A stretch of DNA of 64,000 nucleotides from Escherichia coli (GTDB lineage: Bacteria; Pseudomonadota; Gammaproteobacteria; Enterobacterales; Enterobacteriaceae): the NCBI RefSeq assembly GCF_044324785.1, contig NZ_CP172127.1, one strand, 5' to 3'. The position numbers and the translations under genes are program-made. The notes beneath the pieces were generated by a model. That model was not told where the DNA came from, did not search any database, and saw nothing but the letters and a program-made list of their open reading frames with translations. Positions 1 through 12,018 of this stretch are shown one piece after another (position 1 is the first letter of the stretch; each line of letters starts with the position of its first letter).

Positions 1-297
1 CAAGGTATCGCGCATGTCGTTATTTCACTGGGTGCCGAAGGCGCGCTTTGGGTTAATGCCTCCGGCGAATGGATCGCCAAACCACCGTCAGTCGATGTCG
101 TAAGCACCGTTGGCGCAGGGGATTCTATGGTTGGTGGCCTGATTTATGGCTTGCTGATGCGTGAATCCAGTGAACACACACTGCGTCTGGCGACAGCTGT
201 TGCAGCCCTGGCGGTAAGTCAAAGCAATGTGGGTATTACCGATCGTCCGCAGTTGGCCGCAATGATGGCGCGCGTCGACTTACAACCTTTTAACTGA
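1..297 (+). CDS. fruK: 1-phosphofructokinase, C-terminal fragment (5' end outside window)
   Basis: Frame-1 translation ends ...GAGDSMVGG...DLQPFN-stop; PfkB GAGD signature; sits immediately upstream of fruA as in the fruBKA operon. Confidence 0.85.
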   Translation, partial: QGIAHVVISLGAEGALWVNASGEWIAKPPSVDVVSTVGAGDSMVGGLIYGLLMRESSEHTLRLATAVAALAVSQSNVGITDRPQLAAMMARVDLQPFN

Positions 298-313
298 CAG
301 CAGGAGAGGCATA

Positions 314-2005
314 ATGAAAACGCTGCTGATTATTGACGCTAATCTCGGTCAGGCACGCGCCTATATGGCGAAGACCCTGCTGGGCGCGGCGGCGCGAAAA
401 GCAAAACTGGAAATCATCGACAATCCGAACGACGCTGAAATGGCGATTGTTCTCGGTGATTCCATCCCGAACGACAGCGCGCTGAACGGTAAAAATGTCT
501 GGCTGGGCGATATTTCCCGGGCAGTTGCGCACCCTGAGCTGTTCCTGAGTGAAGCCAAAGGCCATGCGAAACCTTACACTGCGCCGGTCGCTGCGGCAGC
601 ACCGGTTGCCGCCAGCGGTCCGAAACGCGTAGTTGCGGTGACTGCTTGCCCGACTGGCGTAGCACACACCTTTATGGCGGCTGAAGCCATTGAAACCGAA
701 GCGAAAAAACGTGGCTGGTGGGTGAAAGTTGAAACCCGTGGTTCGGTTGGCGCGGGTAATGCAATCACCCCTGAAGAAGTAGCCGCAGCGGATCTGGTGA
801 TTGTGGCGGCAGATATTGAAGTGGATCTGGCGAAATTTGCTGGTAAACCGATGTATCGCACCTCTACCGGTCTGGCGCTGAAGAAAACCGCGCAGGAGCT
901 GGATAAAGCGGTTGCTGAAGCAACGCCGTATGAACCGGCGGGCAAAGCTCAAACGGCGACCACTGAAGGTAAGAAAGAGAGTGCAGGCGCTTATCGTCAC
1001 TTGCTGACGGGCGTTTCTTACATGCTGCCGATGGTCGTTGCAGGTGGTCTGTGTATCGCGCTTTCCTTTGCTTTTGGTATCGAAGCGTTTAAAGAGCCGG
1101 GTACGTTGGCAGCGGCGCTGATGCAGATTGGTGGTGGTTCAGCCTTTGCGCTGATGGTGCCGGTACTGGCAGGTTATATTGCCTTCTCCATTGCCGATCG
1201 TCCGGGTCTCACGCCGGGTCTGATTGGCGGTATGCTGGCGGTCAGCACTGGTTCTGGCTTCATTGGCGGTATTATTGCGGGCTTCCTGGCTGGTTACATT
1301 GCGAAGTTAATCAGTACGCAATTGAAACTGCCACAGAGTATGGAGGCGCTGAAACCGATTCTGATCATTCCGCTAATTTCCAGTCTGGTGGTCGGTCTGG
1401 CGATGATCTACCTGATCGGTAAACCGGTTGCTGGCATTCTCGAAGGGTTGACTCACTGGCTGCAGACCATGGGGACTGCGAATGCGGTTCTGCTGGGGGC
1501 GATCCTCGGTGGCATGATGTGTACTGACATGGGCGGTCCGGTAAACAAAGCAGCGTACGCGTTCGGTGTGGGTCTGCTGAGTACTCAAACCTATGGCCCG
1601 ATGGCGGCGATTATGGCGGCAGGTATGGTGCCACCGCTGGCAATGGGCCTGGCAACAATGGTGGCGCGTCGCAAATTCGACAAAGCGCAGCAGGAAGGGG
1701 GCAAAGCCGCTCTGGTATTGGGACTGTGCTTCATTTCGGAAGGTGCAATTCCGTTTGCTGCTCGTGATCCGATGCGTGTGCTGCCGTGCTGTATCGTGGG
1801 TGGGGCGCTGACTGGCGCAATCTCAATGGCGATTGGTGCGAAACTGATGGCACCGCACGGTGGTCTGTTTGTTCTGCTGATCCCTGGCGCGATTACGCCG
1901 GTATTGGGTTACCTGGTAGCCATTATTGCCGGTACGCTGGTGGCGGGTCTGGCCTATGCCTTCCTGAAACGTCCGGAAGTGGACGCAGTAGCGAAAGTAG
2001 CTTAA
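314..2005 (+). CDS. fruA: PTS fructose-specific EIIB'BC component
   Basis: 563-aa ORF with ATG start and SD caggagagg; N-terminal IIB-like domains followed by polytopic hydrophobic IIC domain; length matches K-12 FruA. Confidence 0.93.
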   Translation: MKTLLIIDANLGQARAYMAKTLLGAAARKAKLEIIDNPNDAEMAIVLGDSIPNDSALNGKNVWLGDISRAVAHPELFLSEAKGHAKPYTAPVAAAAPVAASGPKRVVAVTACPTGVAHTFMAAEAIETEAKKRGWWVKVETRGSVGAGNAITPEEVAAADLVIVAADIEVDLAKFAGKPMYRTSTGLALKKTAQELDKAVAEATPYEPAGKAQTATTEGKKESAGAYRHLLTGVSYMLPMVVAGGLCIALSFAFGIEAFKEPGTLAAALMQIGGGSAFALMVPVLAGYIAFSIADRPGLTPGLIGGMLAVSTGSGFIGGIIAGFLAGYIAKLISTQLKLPQSMEALKPILIIPLISSLVVGLAMIYLIGKPVAGILEGLTHWLQTMGTANAVLLGAILGGMMCTDMGGPVNKAAYAFGVGLLSTQTYGPMAAIMAAGMVPPLAMGLATMVARRKFDKAQQEGGKAALVLGLCFISEGAIPFAARDPMRVLPCCIVGGALTGAISMAIGAKLMAPHGGLFVLLIPGAITPVLGYLVAIIAGTLVAGLAYAFLKRPEVDAVAKVA

Positions 2006-2019
2006 TAAAACGTGAACGA

Positions 2020-2042
2020 CAGGGCAGAAATTTCCTGCCCTG
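2020..2042 (+). terminator. Hairpin 15 nt after fruA stop (8-bp stem cagggcag/ctgccctg, 7-nt loop), weak U-tract
   Basis: Inverted repeat read directly; followed by tatcattt. Confidence 0.4.
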
Positions 2043-2159
2043 TATCATTTGAAGATCGCAAGGTGACTGACTAGTTCTTGAGGGTAACTATATGAATTTT
2101 ATGTTTTTATCTTTAAGTTGAAACCAGAAATCTCATCAAACGTTAATGTTATTTCCTCA

Positions 2160-2187
2160 AGGGCAGATTATTTTCTGCCCTTTTTTA
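2160..2187 (+). terminator. Rho-independent terminator (stem agggcaga/tctgccct followed by TTTTTT)
   Basis: GC-rich 8-bp stem plus 6-T run read directly; stem sequence nearly identical to the hairpin at 2020-2042. Confidence 0.6.
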
Positions 2188-2323
2188 TTGTTCCTGTTCT
2201 GTGCATCCCGTCACAAATTCCCCGTTTTTATAATTCAGGCATTTAATCGCGTTTTGTGAGCCTGCTCAAATCTGCCCATTTTGCCTCTCTGGCGGTAATT
2301 TACTTTACGTAAAACATGCATAC

Positions 2324-2359
2324 TATGAGCACATGTTTAAATATGAACACATGTTTAAA
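2324..2359. repeat. Tandem 18-bp direct repeat (tatgaGcacatgtttaaa / tatgaAcacatgtttaaa) about 70 bp upstream of psuK
   Basis: 17/18 identical adjacent copies, each containing the palindrome ACATGT; candidate regulator binding sites in the psuK promoter. Confidence 0.7.
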
Positions 2360-2426
2360 CCGTCTTTGCAGTATCAATATTCTTGTGGATTGACAGGGTT
2401 GGTAATTTTTTACCAGAGGACGTGCT

Positions 2427-3368
2427 ATGCGCGAAAAGGATTATGTCGTAATTATAGGTTCGGCGAATATTGATGTCGCCGGATATTCACATGAATCATT
2501 AAATTATGCGGATTCAAATCCAGGTAAAATAAAATTTACGCCTGGTGGAGTCGGGCGCAATATTGCACAAAACCTGGCGTTGCTGGGGAACAAAGCCTGG
2601 CTACTGAGCGCCGTAGGCAGTGATTTTTATGGTCAATCGCTGCTAACGCAAACCAATCAATCTGGCGTTTATGTCGATAAATGCCTGATAGTGCCGGGAG
2701 AAAATACGTCAAGCTATTTATCATTACTCGATAATACCGGTGAAATGCTGGTTGCTATAAATGACATGAATATTAGCAACGCTATTACAGCTGAATATCT
2801 CGCACAGCACCGTGAATTTATTCAGAGGGCAAAGGTCATTGTCGCAGACTGTAATATCAGTGAAGAGGCACTGGCATGGATTCTGGATAATGCCGCCAAC
2901 GTACCTGTATTTGTCGATCCTGTTTCCGCGTGGAAATGTGTCAAAGTGCGCGACCGTCTAAATCAAATCCACACTCTCAAGCCAAACCGCCTTGAAGCGG
3001 AAACCCTGAGTGGGATTGCGCTGTCAGGGCGTGAAGATGTGGCAAAAGTTGCTGCCTGGTTCCATCAACATGGCCTGAACCGACTGGTATTGAGCATGGG
3101 CGGCGACGGCGTTTATTACAGCGATATCAGCGGTGAAAGTGGCTGGTCTGCGCCGATCAAAACCAATGTTATTAATGTTACCGGAGCGGGCGATGCCATG
3201 ATGGCGGGGCTTGCTTCGTGTTGGGTAGACGGAATGCCGTTTGCCGAATCTGTTCGTTTCGCACAGGGATGTTCGTCAATGGCGCTCTCCTGTGAATACA
3301 CCAATAACCCCGATTTATCGATTGCCAACGTTATATCGTTAGTGGAGAACGCAGAATGTCTGAATTAA
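2427..3368 (+). CDS. psuK: Pseudouridine kinase (PfkB family)
   Basis: 313 aa; GAGDAMMAG PfkB signature; SD agagga; position and length as K-12 PsuK (YeiC). Confidence 0.9.
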   Translation: MREKDYVVIIGSANIDVAGYSHESLNYADSNPGKIKFTPGGVGRNIAQNLALLGNKAWLLSAVGSDFYGQSLLTQTNQSGVYVDKCLIVPGENTSSYLSLLDNTGEMLVAINDMNISNAITAEYLAQHREFIQRAKVIVADCNISEEALAWILDNAANVPVFVDPVSAWKCVKVRDRLNQIHTLKPNRLEAETLSGIALSGREDVAKVAAWFHQHGLNRLVLSMGGDGVYYSDISGESGWSAPIKTNVINVTGAGDAMMAGLASCWVDGMPFAESVRFAQGCSSMALSCEYTNNPDLSIANVISLVENAECLN

Positions 3369-4294
3369 AAATTTCCCCTGAATTATTACAAATTTCCCCA
3401 GAAGTGCAGGACGCTTTAAAAAACAAAAAACCGATCGTGGCGCTGGAATCGACCATTATTTCTCACGGGATGCCGTTCCCACAAAATGCCCAGACCGCAA
3501 TTGAAGTTGAAGAAACTATTCGTAAACAGGGCGCGGTACCTGCCACTATCGCCATTATTGGCGGCGTGATGAAAGTGGGTTTAAGCAAAGAAGAAATTGA
3601 ATTGCTGGGTCGTGAAGGGCATAACGTGACCAAAGTTAGTCGTCGCGATTTACCTTTTGTTGTTGCCGCAGGGAAAAATGGCGCAACCACCGTTGCTTCA
3701 ACGATGATTATTGCGGCGCTTGCCGGAATTAGAGTATTTGCCACCGGGGGAATTGGTGGTGTGCATCGCGGGGCGGAACATACCTTCGATATTTCTGCCG
3801 ATTTGCAAGAGCTGGCAAATACTAATGTCACCGTTGTTTGTGCCGGGGCGAAATCTATTCTCGATTTAGGATTAACCACTGAGTATTTAGAAACTTTCGG
3901 TGTACCGCTAATTGGCTATCAGACCAAAGCGCTGCCTGCGTTTTTCTGCCGTACCAGCCCGTTTGACGTCAGCATTCGTCTCGACAGCGCCAGTGAAATT
4001 GCCCGTGCAATGGCGGTGAAATGGCAAAGCGGGCTGAACGGTGGCCTCGTGGTAGCGAACCCGATCCCGGAACAGTTTGCGATGCCGGAGGAATCTATCA
4101 ATGCAGCCATAGATCAAGCCGTCGCCGAAGCCGAAGAGCAGGGCGTTATTGGTAAAGAAAGCACACCGTTCCTGCTGGCTCGTGTTGCTGAACTGACTGG
4201 CGGTGACAGCCTGAAATCCAACATCCAGCTGGTGTTCAACAACGCCATTCTGGCGAGCGAAATTGCCAAAGAATATCAGCGTCTCGCGGGTTAA
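3356..4294 (+). CDS. psuG: Pseudouridine-5'-phosphate glycosidase
   Basis: 312 aa, overlaps psuK stop by 13 nt (translational coupling); length and position as K-12 PsuG (YeiN). Confidence 0.9.
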   Translation: MSELKISPELLQISPEVQDALKNKKPIVALESTIISHGMPFPQNAQTAIEVEETIRKQGAVPATIAIIGGVMKVGLSKEEIELLGREGHNVTKVSRRDLPFVVAAGKNGATTVASTMIIAALAGIRVFATGGIGGVHRGAEHTFDISADLQELANTNVTVVCAGAKSILDLGLTTEYLETFGVPLIGYQTKALPAFFCRTSPFDVSIRLDSASEIARAMAVKWQSGLNGGLVVANPIPEQFAMPEESINAAIDQAVAEAEEQGVIGKESTPFLLARVAELTGGDSLKSNIQLVFNNAILASEIAKEYQRLAG

Positions 4295-4321
4295 TTTCTG
4301 ACGGGCAGAAAGCCGTCGCCC
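4294..4321 (+). promoter_or_regulatory. Conserved 28-nt leader element (atttctgaCgggcagaaagccgtcgccc) with 5-bp stem hairpin, upstream of psuT
   Basis: 27/28 identical to the element at 7522-7549 upstream of the paralog nupX. Confidence 0.5.
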
Positions 4322-4387
4322 GTACTCATCAAGCATACCAAAACCTGGCGCTGACGCCGGGTTTACTGGCATGAAGGGAAAATCATT

Positions 4388-5638
4388 ATGGATATAATGA
4401 GAAGTGTTGTGGGGATGGTGGTGTTACTGGCAATAGCATTTCTGTTGTCAGTGAATAAAAAGAGCATCAGTTTGCGCACGGTTGGAGCCGCACTGCTGCT
4501 GCAAATTGCCATTGGTGGCATCATGCTCTATTTTCCGCCGGGAAAATGGGCAGTAGAACAGGCGGCATTAGGCGTTCATAAAGTGATGTCTTACAGTGAT
4601 GCCGGTAGCGCCTTCATTTTTGGTTCGCTGGTCGGGCCGAAAATGGATGTCCTCTTTGACGGTGCGGGTTTTATCTTTGCCTTTCGCGTACTCCCGGCGA
4701 TTATCTTCGTCACTGCGCTCATCAGCCTGCTGTACTACATTGGCGTGATGGGGCTGCTAATCCGCATTCTTGGCAGTATTTTTCAGAAAGCCCTCAACAT
4801 CAGCAAAATCGAATCTTTTGTTGCGGTTACTACTATTTTCCTCGGGCAAAATGAGATCCCGGCGATCGTAAAACCGTTTATCGATCGCATGAATCGCAAC
4901 GAGCTATTTACGGCAATTTGTAGCGGGATGGCGTCCATTGCCGGTTCGATGATGATTGGTTATGCCGGAATGGGCGTACCAATTGACTACCTGTTAGCGG
5001 CATCGCTGATGGCGATCCCTGGTGGTATTTTGTTTGCACGTATTCTTAGCCCAGCCACCGAGCCTTCGCAGGTGACATTTGAAAATCTGTCGTTCAGCGA
5101 AACGCCGCCAAAAAGCTTTATCGAAGCAGCGGCGAGCGGTGCGATGACCGGGTTGAAAATCGCCGCTGGTGTGGCGACGGTGGTAATGGCGTTTGTCGCA
5201 ATTATTGCGCTGATCAACGGTATTATCGGCGGAATTGGCGGCTGGTTTGGTTTTGCCAATGCCTCTCTGGAAAGTATTTTTGGCTATGTGCTGGCACCGC
5301 TGGCGTGGATCATGGGTGTGGACTGGAGTGATGCCAACCTGGCGGGTAGCCTGATTGGGCAGAAACTGGCGATTAACGAATTCGTCGCTTACCTGAGTTT
5401 CTCCCCATACCTGCAAACGGGCGGCACGCTGGAAGTGAAAACCATTGCGATTATCTCCTTTGCGCTTTGTGGTTTTGCTAACTTTGGTTCTATCGGTGTT
5501 GTCGTTGGCGCATTTTCGGCTATTTCGCCAAAACGCGCACCGGAAATCGCCCAGCTTGGTTTACGGGCGCTGGCAGCTGCCACGCTTTCCAACCTGATGA
5601 GCGCGACTATTGCCGGGTTCTTTATTGGTTTAGCTTGA
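4388..5638 (+). CDS. psuT: NupC-family nucleoside (pseudouridine) transporter
   Basis: 416 aa polytopic membrane protein, about 85 percent identical by eye to the nupX product in this window; length as K-12 PsuT (YeiM). Confidence 0.9.
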   Translation: MDIMRSVVGMVVLLAIAFLLSVNKKSISLRTVGAALLLQIAIGGIMLYFPPGKWAVEQAALGVHKVMSYSDAGSAFIFGSLVGPKMDVLFDGAGFIFAFRVLPAIIFVTALISLLYYIGVMGLLIRILGSIFQKALNISKIESFVAVTTIFLGQNEIPAIVKPFIDRMNRNELFTAICSGMASIAGSMMIGYAGMGVPIDYLLAASLMAIPGGILFARILSPATEPSQVTFENLSFSETPPKSFIEAAASGAMTGLKIAAGVATVVMAFVAIIALINGIIGGIGGWFGFANASLESIFGYVLAPLAWIMGVDWSDANLAGSLIGQKLAINEFVAYLSFSPYLQTGGTLEVKTIAIISFALCGFANFGSIGVVVGAFSAISPKRAPEIAQLGLRALAAATLSNLMSATIAGFFIGLA

Positions 5639-5705
5639 GTTTCATTGCCGGAGGTACGCGCTTATTAAATGTTGCATCCGGCAATCGCGCTATTGCAAAT
5701 AATTT

Positions 5706-6365
5706 TTACTGCATCATCCCGGAGAATTTATTCTCCGGGTCCATCTCCAGTGCCAGTCCTGACAACTGCTTTCTGTTTTTAATTAGATACCCTTTCTTGC
5801 TTTTAATTAATAAACCGTCGTGAATGAATTGCGCGAGAACATATAAAAGATGTCGATAAGAAACGCCTAAATACTCTGCCGCTTGCGTATGCTTTTCGTG
5901 ATAAAGATCACCTTCCTGCGAGAGTAATATAAAAGCTGCCAGGCGATTCACTAATGGAAATGATTGATTCTGAGTTAAAGAAACAATATTACGATAATTT
6001 TTATGACTTAAGGTGACGCAGAGTTTTCGTAAAAATAGCGTGTCGTTTAATAACAGCGGGCGGTAATGTTTCATAGGGAGCGCAAGGCACCAACACTCTT
6101 CAATAGCCTGCACCGCACGCGGTTCATGGTCTTTGTCGATTAACTCAATCTCGCCAATAAAACAGGGGGCGGCAAAGAAATCGATCAGCGACACGCGACC
6201 ATTAGCTAGCGTGGCGTAAAGCCTGGCGCGGCCTCGCGTCAGGTAAAACAGCCAGGACGGCTGTTGCCCTTCCTGCACAATGTAGTCACGCGCTAAAAAA
6301 TGAAACAGCCGCGTATCGGCTGAAACATCCGTTGAAAAGCAATCCTTAAACGCGGATTCACTCAT
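5706..6365 (-). CDS. yeiL: CRP/FNR-family transcriptional regulator
   Basis: ORF-track 232-aa frame begins at GTG; internal ATG at 6365 gives 219 aa (MSESAFKD...) matching the K-12 YeiL length; cNMP-binding-like fold plus C-terminal HTH. Confidence 0.85.
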
Positions 6366-6418
6366 CAATTGCTGCTTAAGATCATTATTGTGGATTTCTT
6401 TCACGATGTTTATCCGCT

Positions 6419-6432
6419 ATGAGATTTCTCAT
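6419..6432. promoter_or_regulatory. Perfect palindrome ATGAGA-TT-TCTCAT in the yeiL/rihB divergent promoter region
   Basis: Read directly; 54 bp upstream of the yeiL start, 102 bp upstream of the rihB start. Confidence 0.3.
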
Positions 6433-6533
6433 ATTTAGCATACGTACGCTGTTGTTAAGATTCAATCATCGGCCCGGTCGAATTTTCTTTGCTGTAGAAA
6501 AAATAACGCAACTGGAAACAGAGGAAATAAACA

Positions 6534-7475
6534 ATGGAAAAGAGAAAAATTATTCTGGATTGTGATCCGGGTCATGATGATGCTATTGCAATGATGATGG
6601 CAGCGAAACATCCGGCGATTGATTTATTAGGTATCACCATTGTAGCGGGTAATCAGACGCTTGATAAAACATTAATTAATGGCCTGAATGTTTGCCAGAA
6701 ACTGGAGATTAATGTTCCGGTTTATGCGGGGATGCCACAGCCCATTATGCGGCAACAAATTGTTGCCGATAATATTCACGGTGAAACCGGACTGGATGGC
6801 CCGGTATTCGAGCCGCTGACCCGCCAGGCAGAAAGCACTCATGCGGTGAAATATATCATCGATACCCTGATGGCAAGCGATGGCGATATCACTCTGGTGC
6901 CGGTTGGTCCGCTTTCAAATATCGCGGTGGCAATGCGTATGCAACCCGCGATCCTGCCCAAAATCCGTGAAATTGTGCTAATGGGCGGCGCTTACGGTAC
7001 AGGCAACTTCACCCCATCTGCCGAGTTCAACATCTTTGCCGACCCGGAAGCCGCACGCGTGGTGTTCACCTCCGGCGTTCCGTTGGTGATGATGGGCCTC
7101 GATCTCACCAACCAGACTGTTTGCACCCCGGACGTGATTGCCCGGATGGAAAGGGTAGGCGGCCCCGCCGGAGAGCTGTTCAGCGACATCATGAATTTCA
7201 CTCTAAAAACGCAGTTCGAAAACTACGGCCTGGCTGGCGGCCCGGTGCATGACGCCACCTGCATCGGTTATCTGATTAACCCTGATGGCATTAAAACCCA
7301 GGAGATGTACGTCGAAGTGGACGTTAACAGCGGCCCTTGCTACGGGCGTACGGTCTGCGACGAGCTGGGCGTTCTTGGCAAGCCCGCCAATACCAAAGTC
7401 GGCATCACTATTGATACCGACTGGTTCTGGGGATTAGTCGAAGAGTGCGTGCGCGGCTACATCAAAACCCATTAA
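6534..7475 (+). CDS. rihB: Pyrimidine-specific ribonucleoside hydrolase
   Basis: 313 aa; N-terminal DCDPGHDD nucleoside-hydrolase motif. Confidence 0.9.
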
Positions 7476-7521
7476 GTGTTGATAACAAGCCGGATCAGTG
7501 TCGCAAGATGCAGGCCCGGCT

Positions 7522-7549
7522 ATTTCTGATGGGCAGAAAGCCGTCGCCC
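7522..7549 (+). promoter_or_regulatory. Conserved 28-nt leader element (atttctgaTgggcagaaagccgtcgccc) upstream of nupX
   Basis: Near-identical copy of 4294-4321; the C-to-T change keeps the stem as a G-U pair. Confidence 0.5.
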
Positions 7550-7574
7550 AAAATGACATGAAGAGATAATAACT

Positions 7575-8825
7575 ATGGATGTCATGAGAAGTGTTCTGGG
7601 AATGGTGGTATTGCTGGCAATTGCGTTTTTGCTGTCAGTAAACAAGAAGAAGATCAGCCTGCGTACCGTTGGCGCGGCGTTAGTGTTACAGGTCGTGATT
7701 GGCGGCATTATGCTTTGGTTACCGCCAGGGCGTTGGGTCGCAGAAAAAGTCGCTTTTGGCGTGCATAAAGTGATGGCGTACAGCGACGCGGGTAGCGCAT
7801 TTATCTTTGGTTCTCTGGTCGGACCGAAAATGGACACCTTATTTGATGGCGCAGGATTTATCTTTGGCTTCAGGGTATTACCGGCAATTATCTTCGTTAC
7901 AGCACTGGTGAGTATTCTCTACTACATCGGTGTGATGGGGATCTTAATTCGAATTCTCGGCGGTATATTCCAGAAAGCATTGAATATCAGCAAGATCGAG
8001 TCATTCGTCGCGGTTACTACCATTTTCCTCGGGCAAAACGAAATTCCGGCAATCGTCAAACCCTTTATCGATCGTCTGAATCGCAATGAATTATTTACAG
8101 CGATTTGTAGTGGCATGGCCTCGATTGCTGGTTCGACAATGATTGGTTATGCCGCTCTGGGCGTGCCTGTGGAATATCTGCTGGCGGCATCGTTAATGGC
8201 GATCCCCGGCGGGATCTTGTTTGCCCGCCTGTTAAGCCCGGCTACCGAATCTTCGCAGGTTTCCTTTAATAACCTCTCTTTCACCGAAACACCGCCAAAA
8301 AGCATTATTGAAGCCGCCGCTACAGGGGCAATGACCGGGCTGAAAATCGCAGCAGGTGTGGCGACAGTGGTGATGGCATTTGTTGCCATCATTGCGTTGA
8401 TTAACGGAATTATCGGCGGCGTTGGCGGCTGGTTTGGTTTTGAACATGCCTCGCTGGAGTCAATTTTAGGTTATCTGTTGGCTCCACTGGCGTGGGTGAT
8501 GGGGGTTGACTGGAGTGATGCGAATCTTGCCGGGAGTTTGATTGGACAGAAACTGGCGATTAATGAATTTGTCGCTTACCTCAATTTCTCACCTTATCTG
8601 CAAACAGCTGGCACTCTGGATGCTAAAACCGTGGCGATTATTTCTTTCGCGTTGTGCGGTTTCGCTAACTTTGGTTCTATCGGGGTGGTGGTTGGCGCAT
8701 TTTCTGCGGTTGCGCCACACCGTGCACCGGAAATCGCCCAGCTTGGTTTACGCGCGCTGGCGGCGGCGACACTTTCTAACCTGATGAGTGCCACCATTGC
8801 AGGATTCTTTATTGGCTTAGCGTAG
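7575..8825 (+). CDS. nupX: NupC-family nucleoside transporter
   Basis: 416 aa, paralog of psuT. Confidence 0.9.
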   Translation: MDVMRSVLGMVVLLAIAFLLSVNKKKISLRTVGAALVLQVVIGGIMLWLPPGRWVAEKVAFGVHKVMAYSDAGSAFIFGSLVGPKMDTLFDGAGFIFGFRVLPAIIFVTALVSILYYIGVMGILIRILGGIFQKALNISKIESFVAVTTIFLGQNEIPAIVKPFIDRLNRNELFTAICSGMASIAGSTMIGYAALGVPVEYLLAASLMAIPGGILFARLLSPATESSQVSFNNLSFTETPPKSIIEAAATGAMTGLKIAAGVATVVMAFVAIIALINGIIGGVGGWFGFEHASLESILGYLLAPLAWVMGVDWSDANLAGSLIGQKLAINEFVAYLNFSPYLQTAGTLDAKTVAIISFALCGFANFGSIGVVVGAFSAVAPHRAPEIAQLGLRALAAATLSNLMSATIAGFFIGLA

Positions 8826-8838
8826 TGCGCGAGTTATG

Positions 8839-8872
8839 AGCCGGATAAGACGCGGTCAAGCGTCGAATCCGG
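8839..8872. repeat. Degenerate REP-like palindromic element between convergent nupX and yeiI
   Basis: gccggataagacgcg...gcgtcgaatccggc, resembles the E. coli REP consensus. Confidence 0.4.
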
Positions 8873-8880
8873 CAACATTG

Positions 8881-9969
8881 TTACACCATCGGCACTAATG
8901 AAAGCGCGTTTTCGGCAGACAGGGTAGGGTTGTTTAAGCTGCCGCTGGCGCGTGAAATTGCCGCGCAGGCCATCGCAAAACGGGCGCTGTCACGGAAATT
9001 GTTTCCCTCCAGAAAGCTATATACCAGGCCCGCCATAAAACCATCGTCAGCACCAAAACTGTCTACTGTCGTATGCGCTGGCGCTGTCAGCAAAAATTGT
9101 TCTCCATCCTTTTCGCTGCAATAAACTGACTCATCGGGCAAATAAACAAACAGTTGCTGAACACCTTGCTGATGCAACGTATTCACTGCGGCATTACGGT
9201 CAGCATCGCTGGTGATCGCCTGTCCCCATAAAATTTCCAGCTCCGGTAAAGTGGGTTTCAGGGTGTGAATATGCGCCAGCCAGTGTTTGATTTTGCCCGC
9301 TTTGAATTCTGAAACGGTATCGACAAACACCGGGATTTCATCAGCGAGGGTAAAGACCCACTCCAGCGCCTCGGCTGTCAGGTTGCAATCAGCAAGTACC
9401 ACGCCCGCATGACGAAGTAAATCGCGCGACCCGTTCAGTAGTTGCGGTGTCAACTGATCCAGCAGATGGGTATCGTTAATCGCCAGCACGGTTTGATCGT
9501 CTCGATTGGCAATTGCCAGATACGTCGATGTGCTTTGACCATGTAAACGAACGCAGCCGGAGACATTCACGCCGGCGCGGCGCGTTTCTTCCAGGAGCAT
9601 TTCGCCATAAAAGTCATCGCCAATCACTGAAAGCAAATGGACGTCGCGGCCTAACAGCGCCAAATTGTGGGCGATATTGCGCCCCACGCCGCCCGCCGAG
9701 CAATGAATTGTACCGGGATGAGAAGCCGCTTGCGGGTAACGGATATCCGCCATCCCGCGAATATCCATATTGATTGTCCCCACCACTACGCAGTATTCCT
9801 GCTCGGTGAGAATGTAACCTTTGCCTTTAATTCGACCTTTGCGCATTAAATCCATAATATGCGCCGCAACGCGCGAACGGCTGATTTGCAGCATATCAGC
9901 AATTTCGTTCTGCTGAATCAGCGGGTTACGCCGTAAAATTGCAAGGATCTCCTTCTCCCGGTTGTTCAT
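8881..9969 (-). CDS. yeiI: HTH-domain fused to PfkB-family (PsuK-like) sugar/nucleoside kinase
   Basis: 362 aa; N-terminal winged-helix segment (EILAILRRNPLIQQNEIADMLQISRSRVAAHI) then kinase domain with GGVGRNIAHNLA motif. Confidence 0.85.
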   Translation of the reverse strand: MNNREKEILAILRRNPLIQQNEIADMLQISRSRVAAHIMDLMRKGRIKGKGYILTEQEYCVVVGTINMDIRGMADIRYPQAASHPGTIHCSAGGVGRNIAHNLALLGRDVHLLSVIGDDFYGEMLLEETRRAGVNVSGCVRLHGQSTSTYLAIANRDDQTVLAINDTHLLDQLTPQLLNGSRDLLRHAGVVLADCNLTAEALEWVFTLADEIPVFVDTVSEFKAGKIKHWLAHIHTLKPTLPELEILWGQAITSDADRNAAVNTLHQQGVQQLFVYLPDESVYCSEKDGEQFLLTAPAHTTVDSFGADDGFMAGLVYSFLEGNNFRDSARFAMACAAISRASGSLNNPTLSAENALSLVPMV

Positions 9970-9971
9970 CT

Positions 9972-10829
9972 TCAGGCTACCGCTTTTTCAGTTTGTTGCG
10001 CTTTCAGCCAGGCGATCTCTTCTGCCCAGATATCCGGGTTGATGGTTTCAAGGATCAGCGGAATGCCGTCGAAACGGTCGTCCTGCATGATCCAGCGGAA
10101 CGCATCATGACCGATATTGCCTTCACCGAGGCTATGATGGCGGTCAACGCGGCTGCCAAAGGTGCTTTTCGCATCGTTAAGGTGCATCCCGCGCAGATAC
10201 TTAAAGCCGACAATACGGGCAAAATCAGCGAACGTTTTCTCGCATTCGGCTGGAGTACGCAAATCATACCCGGCAGCAAAAGCATGGCAGGTATCAATGC
10301 AGACGCCGACGCGGGATTTATCTTCCACGCCGTCGATAATCGCCGCGAGATGTTCGAATTTAAACCCTAAGTTACTGCCCTGACCGGCGGTGTTTTCAAT
10401 CACCGCTGTTACACCTTGAGTTTTATCCAGCGCAATGTTGATGGATTCAGCAATACGCGCAAGGCAATCCTCTTCTGAAATCTGCATCAGATGGCTGCCA
10501 GGGTGGAAGTTGAGCAAAGAAAGCCCCAGCTGTTCGCAACGCTGCATTTCATCTATAAACGCATCGCGCGATTTTTCCAGAGCTTCAGCGACCGGATGTC
10601 CGAGGTTAATCAGATAACTGTCGTGGGGAAGAATTTGCGCCGATGTGTAGTGATATTTTTCACAGGCGGCTTTGAATTCATCGATGGTTTGCGTCGTGAG
10701 CGGTGCGGCACGCCACTGACGTTGGTTTTTGGTGAACAAGGCAAACGCGGTTGCGTCGATTTCGGCGGCGCGAATTGCGGCATTTGCCAGACCGCCAGCA
10801 GCACTAACGTGCGCTCCAATGTATTTCAT
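9972..10829 (-). CDS. nfo: Endonuclease IV (AP endonuclease)
   Basis: 285 aa, length and neighbourhood as K-12 Nfo; TIM-barrel AP endonuclease family. Confidence 0.92.
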
Positions 10830-10902
10830 GCGAGGACTCCTGTTAAACCCGCTGGAGGAAAACGGTAATGATAGCGGGTTAACAGGAGCAAGATGTAGTG
10901 GT

Positions 10903-11952
10903 TTATGCGATGACGCTTTGAATCACATAGTTAATCGCACCACCACCAACAATCAGCCAGGCAAACAGTACCAGTGCCATCAGCAGAGGTTTCGCCCCGG
11001 CTTTTTTCAGCGCGCTGACGTGAGTGGTCAGACCCAGCGCCGCCATCGCCATTGCCAGCAGGAAGGTATCCAGCGTTACCAGCATGTTCACCACGCTCTG
11101 CGGTAACAGGTGGAACGAGTTAAAGATGGCAACTACGATGAACAAGATGGCAAACCACGGAATAGTGATTTTGCTTTTCTCGCCGCTGTTCGCCCCAGAC
11201 AGCTGTTTAACACGCGCCGCCAGCAGGATGAGGAACGGAGCCAGCATCATCACGCGCAGCATTTTGGAAATAACTGCTGCGTTTTCCGCATCCGGGCTGA
11301 TGGCATGACCTGCCGCCACCACCTGCGCCACTTCGTGCACAGTAGAACCAATGTAGATACCGAAAGTTTCCGGACTAAACCATTGAGACATCAGCGGATA
11401 TATCGCCGGGTAGAGGAAAATCGCCACGGTCCCGAAGATAACAACGGTTGCAACAGCCACGGTTACTTTACTGGCTTCCGCTTTCACTACCGGCTCAGTC
11501 GCCAGTACCGCGGCAGCACCACAGATACTGCTACCGGCACCGATCAACCAGCTGGTGTGCTTATCCAGACCAAACACTTTCTGCCCCAGGAAGCAAGCCA
11601 GCAGGAAGGTACTGGACAGCGTCAACACGTCAATAATGATCCCACTGATACCGACATCGGCAATTTGCGAGAACGTCAGACGGAAGCCATAAAGAATGAT
11701 ACCCAGACGTAATAAATATTGCTTGGCAAACAGCACACCACCGTCACAGCTTTTCCAGATGTGCGGATAGATGGTGTTGCCTAAAACCATCCCCAACAAA
11801 ATTGCGAGGGTGAGGGCACTAAACCCGGCACCCGCAACCGCGGGAATGGAACCACCCCACAGGGCGACCCCGGTGATAACTGCACTCAGGGCTAACCCCG
11901 GAATAAAATGCCACAGTGTACGATGTTGTTTCTGTAAGGTGATATTCGTCAT
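10903..11952 (-). CDS. yeiH: UPF0324-family inner membrane protein
   Basis: 349 aa polytopic hydrophobic protein divergent from LysR regulator yeiE. Confidence 0.85.
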
Positions 11953-12018
11953 AACCCTCTCCTTTAACCGGGCATAAGGTTACGACTAACTGGTTTAAAA
12001 ATAAAATTGATTATATAT

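Follow-up and report, generated by a model that had tools for sequence, protein, structure and literature searches.

The paralogous nucleoside transporter genes psuT and nupX, encoded in a 64,000-nucleotide (nt) stretch of Escherichia coli DNA (contig NZ_CP172127.1, assembly GCF_044324785.1; hereafter the window), carry in their 5′ leaders a common conserved hairpin, here designated H1, in which a G+C-rich stem of 5-8 base pairs (bp), (A)CGGGC/GCCCG(U), closes an 11-nt loop of consensus AG-NNN-GC-N-GU-Y. The stem of H1 covaries, the hairpin is under purifying selection, and it travels with the transporter gene and not with the gene upstream. H1 is very probably a real, selected RNA structure, and it appears to be undescribed so far. 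We consider it on balance probable that H1 is a conserved RNA stem-loop belonging to the 5′ leaders of Enterobacteriaceae genes for concentrative nucleoside transporters of the psuT/nupX class, where it would serve as a cis-acting boundary element. The original prediction concerned a repeated 28-nt block at 4294-4321 and 7522-7549 said to differ at one position, and the two copies indeed agree at 27 of 28 positions, with C4302 in the psuT copy corresponding to T7530 in the nupX copy.

Leader sequences were obtained from a species-level genome scan, from contigs encoding 85-90% identical homologues and from a metagenome pattern scan, the pattern used in the latter (CCGGGTTTB-N(8-30)-TCATTATGGA) being too unspecific, with about 20 true leaders among the at least 120 loci listed. 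The resulting 30 distinct leaders represent Escherichia, Citrobacter, Kluyvera, Klebsiella, Leclercia, Enterobacter, Buttiauxella, Entomohabitans, Superficieibacter, Dryocola/H11S18 and metagenome taxa. H1 was found in each leader by a loose pattern on three stem positions per arm, which left alignment columns 6 and 26 free and which at columns 7 and 25 allowed non-pairing combinations, none of which occurred. Over the 30 leaders, 94.4% of cells in the six H1 pairs are paired, and for the inner five pairs the figure is 149 of 150 cells. Pair 6-26 is found as CG (24), UA (4) or UG (2) and pair 7-25 as GC (27) or AU (3), with pair 5-27 (AU 11, GC 8, GU 2) being the weak pair of the helix. Double changes occur in three of the six pairs (15 cells), and mapping of the changes by eye on the protein tree gives at least five independent compensatory events. 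Neither the observed pairing nor the covariation score was reached by any of 500 shuffles, slid registers of the helix bring pairing down to 32-54%, and RNAalifold, run unanchored on whole leaders, predicts the H1 helix and nothing else. The loop measures 11 nt in all 30 sequences, and within it G6, C7, G9 and U10 are nearly fixed, with positions 3-5, 8 and 11 being variable. H1 displays what is looked for in a conserved cis-regulatory RNA hairpin, namely pairs kept by compensatory substitutions together with a fixed position and orientation relative to one gene family.

The two copies in the window are themselves compensatory counterparts, the closing pair being U-A in the nupX hairpin (T7530-A7550) where the psuT hairpin has C-G (C4302-G4322). 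RNAfold returns the H1 stem at -11.1 kcal/mol for an isolated 31-mer of the psuT leader, and the covariance model scores the psuT and nupX hairpins at 37.2 and 34.2 bits, respectively. The 5′ arm of E. coli strain GN06667 and that of E. albertii carry GU in place of AC, which gives G-U and U-G pairs on the gene strand and mismatches on the opposite one. We read H1 as a sense-strand RNA structure because of these G-U/U-G variants, of a U-G pair in the second leader hairpin (H2, described below) and of the fixed orientation toward the transporter gene.

The hairpin proposed originally was another one, a 5-bp stem GACGG/CCGTC in which the C/T change within the block would be kept as a G-U pair. 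This is correct for E. coli; in other species the stem lacks support, as 66% of its cells are paired over the 30 distinct leaders, which equals the level of shuffled columns, and 24 of the 30 sequences break its G7-C18 pair. RNAfold chooses it in the long E. coli psuT leader only when stacked on a pairing of psuG codons (GCGGGU/GCCCGU) that is itself E. coli-specific. The C-to-T difference is one half of a C-G to U-A swap, the partner of which (G4322 versus A7550) lies one base past the block. Covariation across Enterobacteriaceae leaders, the check suggested at the outset, is found for the CGGGC/GCCCG helix and not for GACGG/CCGTC.

We then considered how much conservation the repeated block represents. 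PsuT and NupX share 88% protein identity, and the identity of their genes, 79% for the whole DNA, falls to 53% at third codon positions and to 44% at four-fold sites; the divergence of the two DNA sequences is old. A neutral 28-mer would reach 27/28 with a probability of about 1e-6 or less (a binomial estimate from these identities), 16 of 1224 coding 28-nt windows of psuT/nupX (1.3%) reach it, and shuffling the window 100 times gave zero matches within 3 mismatches of the block. E. coli genomes hold a median of 2 copies, one per locus, so the block is not a dispersed repeat; with a maximum of 3 places per genome, a repetitive extragenic palindromic (REP) sequence or bacterial interspersed mosaic element was likewise rejected. 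On the psuT side the block starts at the last base of the psuG stop codon, on the nupX side 47 nt past the rihB stop. Its first 7-8 nt (ATTTCTGA) are common only to Escherichia (the E. coli pair and E. albertii) and Citrobacter, the other genera being unrelated here. The palindrome TTTCTG-N5-CAGAAA was considered as a DNA site and dismissed, as it is not enriched in the window (4 occurrences versus 2.95 expected), is broken in E. albertii and is absent outside Escherichia and Citrobacter. Two statements on the surroundings of the block need adjustment: the psuT leader has an insertion of 41 nt relative to nupX in place of the "about 45 extra nt", and the flanks have diverged as described except for the last ~35 nt before each ATG, which are homologous too, so that the block is not the sole shared stretch.

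The view that conservation of the block reflects function is borne out, in that the block is neither missing elsewhere nor drifting like its flanks: 30 of the 31 distinct psuT/nupX leaders share a core of ~21 nt, across at least 10 genera of enteric bacteria, and in the one exception a longer hairpin takes its place. Mean pairwise identity between lineages is 0.79 for the stem, 0.62 for the loop and 0.35 for 8 flanking positions, against 0.44 at four-fold sites. The psuT/nupX pair of E. coli has a loop identity of 1.0 and a flank identity of 0.75, where other pairs at equal synonymous divergence have 0.62 and 0.35, and the E. coli and Buttiauxella nupX hairpins differ at exactly two loop positions, both of which match E. 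coli psuT in the E. coli copy. The 27/28 identity is probably the result of constraint plus either a short gene conversion or changes in parallel within the Escherichia lineage, gene conversion being invoked because the E. coli copies are more alike than conservation among orthologues gives.

The covariance model of H1 matches every psuT/nupX-clade locus examined and gives no match in ~70 more distant NupC-family loci, nor elsewhere in the 64-kb window. H1 lies 26-70 nt upstream of the transporter start, always on the gene strand and behind psuG or rihB. Its start is 6-10 nt past the psuG stop in the psuG-psuT leaders measured and 40-60 nt past the rihB stop in rihB-nupX spacers, where a genus-specific hairpin precedes it. 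The association is with the transporter gene irrespective of the upstream gene and persists in rearranged loci such as that of Enterobacter hormaechei (L091, 4168-10725), where yeiL, rihB, nupX, psuK, psuG and psuT follow one another on a single strand. Among other arrangements, E. albertii (L002, 3450-5460) lacks the whole yeiL-rihB-nupX segment and has yeiI and nfo directly after psuT, and in several genera the rihB-nupX module resides at an unrelated chromosomal site (L086, L087). As yeiL is confined to rihB-nupX loci and yeiI to psuKGT loci, and as H1 is present in genomes having just one of these, no locus-encoded regulator is an obligate partner of H1.

Some lineages have a different hairpin at this position. 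In Leclercia and E. hormaechei nupX the stem is longer and the loop is replaced by a self-complementary one; Entomohabitans psuT has an unrelated, longer hairpin of 15 bp; and the psuG-psuT spacers of Serratia, Hafnia and Klebsiella sp. BIGb0407 (L006-L009, ~2860-2960) are without H1 and share another long hairpin, CCTGAAAGG...CCTTTCAGG, which is preceded by the conserved motifs TTAAGTTTTATCC and AAATAAAA. These substitutions suggest a generic structural role. The stem of H1 matters everywhere and its loop in most lineages. A cmscan search of window positions 1-12000 against Rfam 15, with E up to 10, gave no match overlapping 4290-4390 or 7476-7577, and neither the K-12 annotation, a Term-seq data set, a noncoding-RNA survey of 50 genomes nor the literature searched has an entry for the psuT/nupX leader element. 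Elsewhere in the searched region, weak sub-threshold matches to Rfam naRNA4 were seen on both strands at 8839-8887, just 3′ of nupX, a segment that is probably a REP-type palindrome.

Variation within E. coli follows the same pattern. Most E. coli genomes show only 93-96% identity to the window over a 105-nt query that covers the rihB-nupX spacer, and 22 of 5048 reach at least 99%. In 8 strains spread over this identity range, single-nucleotide polymorphisms (SNPs) concentrate in the hairpin after rihB (7488-7521), with H1 and the ribosome-binding region of the nupX leader being invariant. SNPs of the psuT leader fall mostly in the linker between H1 and H2 and also in the H2 loop, and the only changes within psuT H1 are at loop position 8 and the pair-preserving AC to GU exchange. 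Two strains differ more substantially in the nupX leader. E. coli SCPM-O-B-8794 retains ~12 nt of ancestral linker after H1, roughly ACGGGATCAGAC (L001 6165-6180 versus window 7550-7553), which resembles the Buttiauxella nupX linker and is lost from the window and from K-12. In E. coli ETEC4071 (L217, 1-120) an IS200C-family element appears to have inserted immediately upstream of TTCTGATGGGC, with tnpA ~105 nt upstream, such that the rihB side of the spacer is replaced and H1 is intact.

Table 1. Features of the psuT and nupX loci (window coordinates); gene names in the first 12 kb of the window were taken from the K-12 annotation of the same region.
Feature	Position	Strand	Description
fruA	314-2005		gene in first 12 kb of window
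psuK	2427-3368		gene in first 12 kb of window
psuG	3356-4294		upstream enzyme gene of psuT
5′ part of block, ATTTCTG	4294-4300 (same letters 7522-7528)	+	AU-rich lead-in to H1; overlaps psuG stop codon
H1, psuG-psuT spacer	4301-4323	+	5′ arm ACGGGC 4301-4306; loop AGAAAGCCGTC 4307-4317; 3′ arm GCCCGT 4318-4323
Linker	4324-4340	+	C/A-rich, single-stranded; contains ATCA-NNN-ATACC (4328-4339)
H2, second hairpin	4341-4364	+	AAACCTGGCG, loop CTGA, CGCCGGGTTT; stem ends in only 3 U; predicted by RNAfold
psuT Shine-Dalgarno-like AAGGGA and start codon	4374-4379 and 4388-4390	+	kept in orthologues
psuT	4388-5638		nucleoside transporter gene
yeiL	5706-6404	-	
rihB	6534-7475		upstream enzyme gene of nupX
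Hairpin after rihB, AGCCGG...CCGGCT	7488-7521	+	just upstream of nupX block; predicted by RNAfold
H1, rihB-nupX spacer	7530-7550	+	5′ arm TGGGC 7530-7534; loop AGAAAGCCGTC 7535-7545; 3′ arm GCCCA 7546-7550
nupX Shine-Dalgarno-like GAAGAGA and start codon	7560-7566 and 7575-7577	+	
nupX	7575-8825		nucleoside transporter gene
yeiI and nfo	3′ of nupX	-	

As regards the remaining parts of the two leaders (Table 1), the psuT leader as a whole is far more conserved than synonymous sites. The linker motif ATCA-NNN-ATACC is kept in most psuT leaders and in several nupX leaders, including that of Klebsiella spallanzanii, and is not universal, as it is missing from the nupX leader of the window and of K-12 and from leaders L127 and L143. 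Hairpin H2 is present in psuT leaders and in K. spallanzanii nupX and was lost from most nupX lineages by different deletions. Across 20 distinct leaders it has 9 conserved pairs (stem 9-10 bp), a conservation overstated for the metagenome rows because the scan pattern biased the H2 3′ arm, together with a loop that is highly variable in sequence and length. All changes in the H2 stem are one-sided, and its central U-G pair, found in 16 of 20 leaders, points to the + strand. Direct repeats, CCTGGC and ACTGGC, flank H2. In the nupX leader, the position after rihB is occupied by a different, non-homologous hairpin in each genus. Around the psuT start, a short open reading frame (ORF), AUG AAG GGA AAA UCA UUA UGG AUA UAA (window 4371-4399), overlaps the ribosome-binding site and start codon out of frame, and the sequences UCAUUAU and AUAAUGA are able to pair across the start codon.

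Several familiar mechanisms were tried for these leaders and rejected. Intrinsic terminators were judged by a G+C-rich stem, a loop of 3-8 nt and an adjoining U tract (for H2, 5 or more U within 8 nt). The loop of H1 measures 11 nt, and the hairpin is followed by ACTCATC (psuT) or AAATGAC (nupX) in place of a U tract, H2 has a stable stem with the tail TTTACTGG (TTTC, TTTG or TTTT in orthologues), and neither was called by the terminator scan. The attenuator role suggested for the hairpin at the outset is unlikely, because H1 is without a U tract; of the other functions suggested there, a processing site or a binding site may apply. An attenuator of the 1:2/2:3/3:4 type formed from the 3′ arm of H1 and the arms of H2 was also dismissed, the alternative pairings on inspection being only 4-5 bp long and not conserved. 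Through the C-to-T change the nupX stem comes to contain an AUG, which opens a 10-codon ORF, MGRKPSPKMT followed by a stop (window 7529-7561). A leader peptide is unlikely here, as there is no Shine-Dalgarno sequence and as several nupX lineages have AUGGG with differing ORF length and frame; we judge the AUG to be incidental. Finally, pairing of the loop GC-N-GU with Ile-Ala codons (AUH-GC) at +46 to +50 had looked striking, with the variable loop position opposite the wobble base. The variable position pairs in 16 of 26 cases, however, versus ~51% expected, and C at loop position 8 never pairs, such that this candidate was abandoned as well.

In the reading that we favor, H1 would be part of the sense transcript, placed after the enzyme gene (psuG or rihB) and before the transporter gene, and would act in cis, post-transcriptionally, to set transporter expression apart from that of the upstream enzyme gene. 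The most likely route would be cleavage in the AU-rich stretch before H1, after which H1 would protect the transporter mRNA as a stem-loop close to its 5′ end; its conserved loop might in addition be a docking site for a housekeeping RNA-binding factor. This specific stability or processing mechanism is tentative and to our minds rather less probable than otherwise, and our overall assessment of H1 as a boundary element is a compromise between the high confidence in the structure and the low confidence in the mechanism. A number of points weigh against it. The data sets searched contain no 5′/3′-end, cleavage or binding data for the psuT/nupX leaders, the genes of the locus being only weakly expressed in the laboratory. 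No fixed RNase E site can be made out, because the AU-rich stretch is unconserved outside Escherichia and Citrobacter. A purely structural stabilizer leaves the fixed loop length and the four near-invariant loop positions unexplained, and the stability of H1 is moderate (-8 to -11 kcal/mol, z ~ -1.7 versus shuffles). The strand argument is suggestive and not decisive, because the counts of G-U and A-C over all six H1 pairs are small (about 6 versus 3). Lastly, a single conversion tract must skip the C/T difference lying inside it, and gene conversion for this reason stays a probable contributor only.

The boundary element overlaps with a reading of H1 as the operator of a trans-acting RNA-binding protein or base-pairing small RNA, which would recognise the 11-nt loop and thereby govern how the transporter mRNA is translated or degraded; in this second reading, recognition would matter over and above structure. 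We hold it to be possible, on the doubtful side. The pattern of near-invariant and variable positions in a loop of fixed length is what such a factor would ask for, no complementary partner accounting for that pattern was found in the leader or early coding region, and the want of a co-occurring locus-encoded regulator fits a housekeeping factor. However, no candidate factor was found, and Leclercia/E. hormaechei nupX and Entomohabitans psuT kept a hairpin and lost the loop sequence. In addition, psuT, nupX, psuG and rihB are absent from the supplementary tables searched of RNA interaction by ligation and sequencing (RIL-seq), weak evidence given that the expression of these genes is low. We regard as unlikely a further proposal, in which a new and very small riboregulator, sensory or protein-operated, is devoted to pyrimidine/pseudouridine nucleoside uptake in enteric bacteria. 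It would consist of H1, joined in psuT leaders perhaps by the linker and H2, and would either bind a ligand as a minimal hairpin or be read at the loop G-C-N-G-U by a hitherto unrecognised RNA-binding regulator. A reading of H1, linker and H2 together as a small riboswitch or attenuator that senses a pyrimidine nucleoside or pseudouridine, the loop and ACC tail forming a preQ1-I-like pseudoknot and H2 acting as terminator, is very unlikely. The whole psuT leader is conserved far above synonymous sites and is placed directly upstream of a transporter gene, its stem length, loop length and A/C-rich tail are superficially like the preQ1-I class, and ACC is part of the H2 5′ arm in Leclercia psuT. 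Against this, the duplex energies of loop and downstream sequence are no better than those of shuffled loops: RNAduplex of the loop against the downstream leader, evaluated over 31 leaders with 300 shuffled loops each, gives a mean z of +0.14, and a pseudoknot of GGU with ACC was rejected. Moreover, the tail motif is missing in the nupX leader of the window and K-12 and in two further leaders, H2 with its 3-4 U is not picked up by the terminator scan and most nupX leaders are without it, inspection revealed no conserved antiterminator pairing, and Rfam gives no match even at E = 10.

The dyad GGGC-N11-GCCC is an inverted repeat, and the transporter might own a promoter; one could accordingly take it for a DNA operator of a dimeric transcription factor, or for part of an internal promoter. 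The sole outside hint of such a promoter is a weak peak within psuG in RpoS-holoenzyme SELEX (systematic evolution of ligands by exponential enrichment; PMC5493296). Against this reading, which we consider highly improbable, the compensatory changes preserve complementarity and not half-site identity, and wobble variants are tolerated on the + strand, although the G-U and A-C counts given above are too small to be decisive. A centre-to-centre spacing of 15 bp around a conserved asymmetric centre is in our judgement atypical for a dimer operator, and neither locus regulator co-distributes with H1. Promoters themselves were also looked for: the leaders have no conserved -10/-35 just upstream of H1 and no sigma-70 promoter was called at either leader, and for a sigma-54 promoter (TGGCAC-N5-TTGC, GG-N10-GC) the spacing is unmet, the GG at 4304-4305 being followed 10 nt on by TC and not GC. 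Least probable of all is that H1 is without present function and that the block is identical in E. coli only because one paralogous leader was recently converted by the other. In loop and flank, the two E. coli copies are indeed closer than any inter-genus pair at equal synonymous divergence, but conversion can give neither the conservation and covariation of H1 over at least 10 genera, including genomes with one gene only, nor its invariance amid a polymorphic E. coli spacer, and the orthologue data have largely refuted this explanation already.

The transporters encoded by psuT and nupX rank with the least understood in E. coli K-12, and to our knowledge their regulation has not been described at all; rihB has been reported as cryptic in K-12. 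A covarying hairpin specific to the transporter clade offers a concrete handle on how transporter levels are set apart from those of the catabolic enzymes of the operon. The K-12 genome moreover gains an unannotated structured RNA, at ~2257400-2257422 and 2254170-2254190 on the minus strand (converted coordinates). The practical stakes are modest, H1 being a further conserved leader hairpin and no new principle unless its loop binds a ligand or a new regulator.

In comparison with known systems, H1 would work like hairpins that govern mRNA stability. With intrinsic terminators it shares the G+C-rich stem, and H2 ends in UUU(U) with an A tract before it, whereas the 11-nt loop and missing U tract of H1 and the 3-4 U of H2, not called by the scan, set both apart. 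The rph-pyrE intercistronic attenuator likewise belongs to pyrimidine metabolism and has its hairpin a few nt past the stop of the upstream ORF, as H1 has behind psuG; the pyrE hairpin, however, is an intrinsic terminator with a long U tract, which H1 lacks, and in rihB-nupX spacers H1 is 40-60 nt away from the stop. The preQ1-I riboswitch (RF00522) resembles H1 in its stem of 5-6 bp, loop of ~11 nt, A/C-rich 3′ tail and position upstream of a transporter gene, and differs in that H1 has no Rfam match, loop-tail complementarity at chance level and a tail that is not universal. In malE-malF (a REP sequence) and papB-papA (processing), intercistronic hairpins give segmental mRNA stability. H1 is similarly a stem-loop between the cistrons of a soluble enzyme and a membrane protein, for which differential expression is plausible, and in the rihB-nupX region two hairpins flank an AU-rich spacer; REPs, on the other hand, are multi-copy where H1 has 2 copies per genome, and the malE-malF and papB-papA hairpins form the 3′ end of the upstream gene where H1 was duplicated together with the downstream transporter gene. 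The ompA 5′ untranslated region reportedly carries a 5′-terminal stem-loop that stabilizes this E. coli mRNA, as Emory, Bouvet and Belasco are said to have described in 1992. That hairpin is at the 5′ end of a primary transcript, whereas H1 is operon-internal and would need processing, and the loop of H1 is conserved. The likeness lies in a modest G+C-rich hairpin at the upstream edge of the leader, with unpaired sequence and then the ribosome-binding site after it, and in a role that is largely independent of sequence, which fits the lineages that exchanged H1 for other hairpins.

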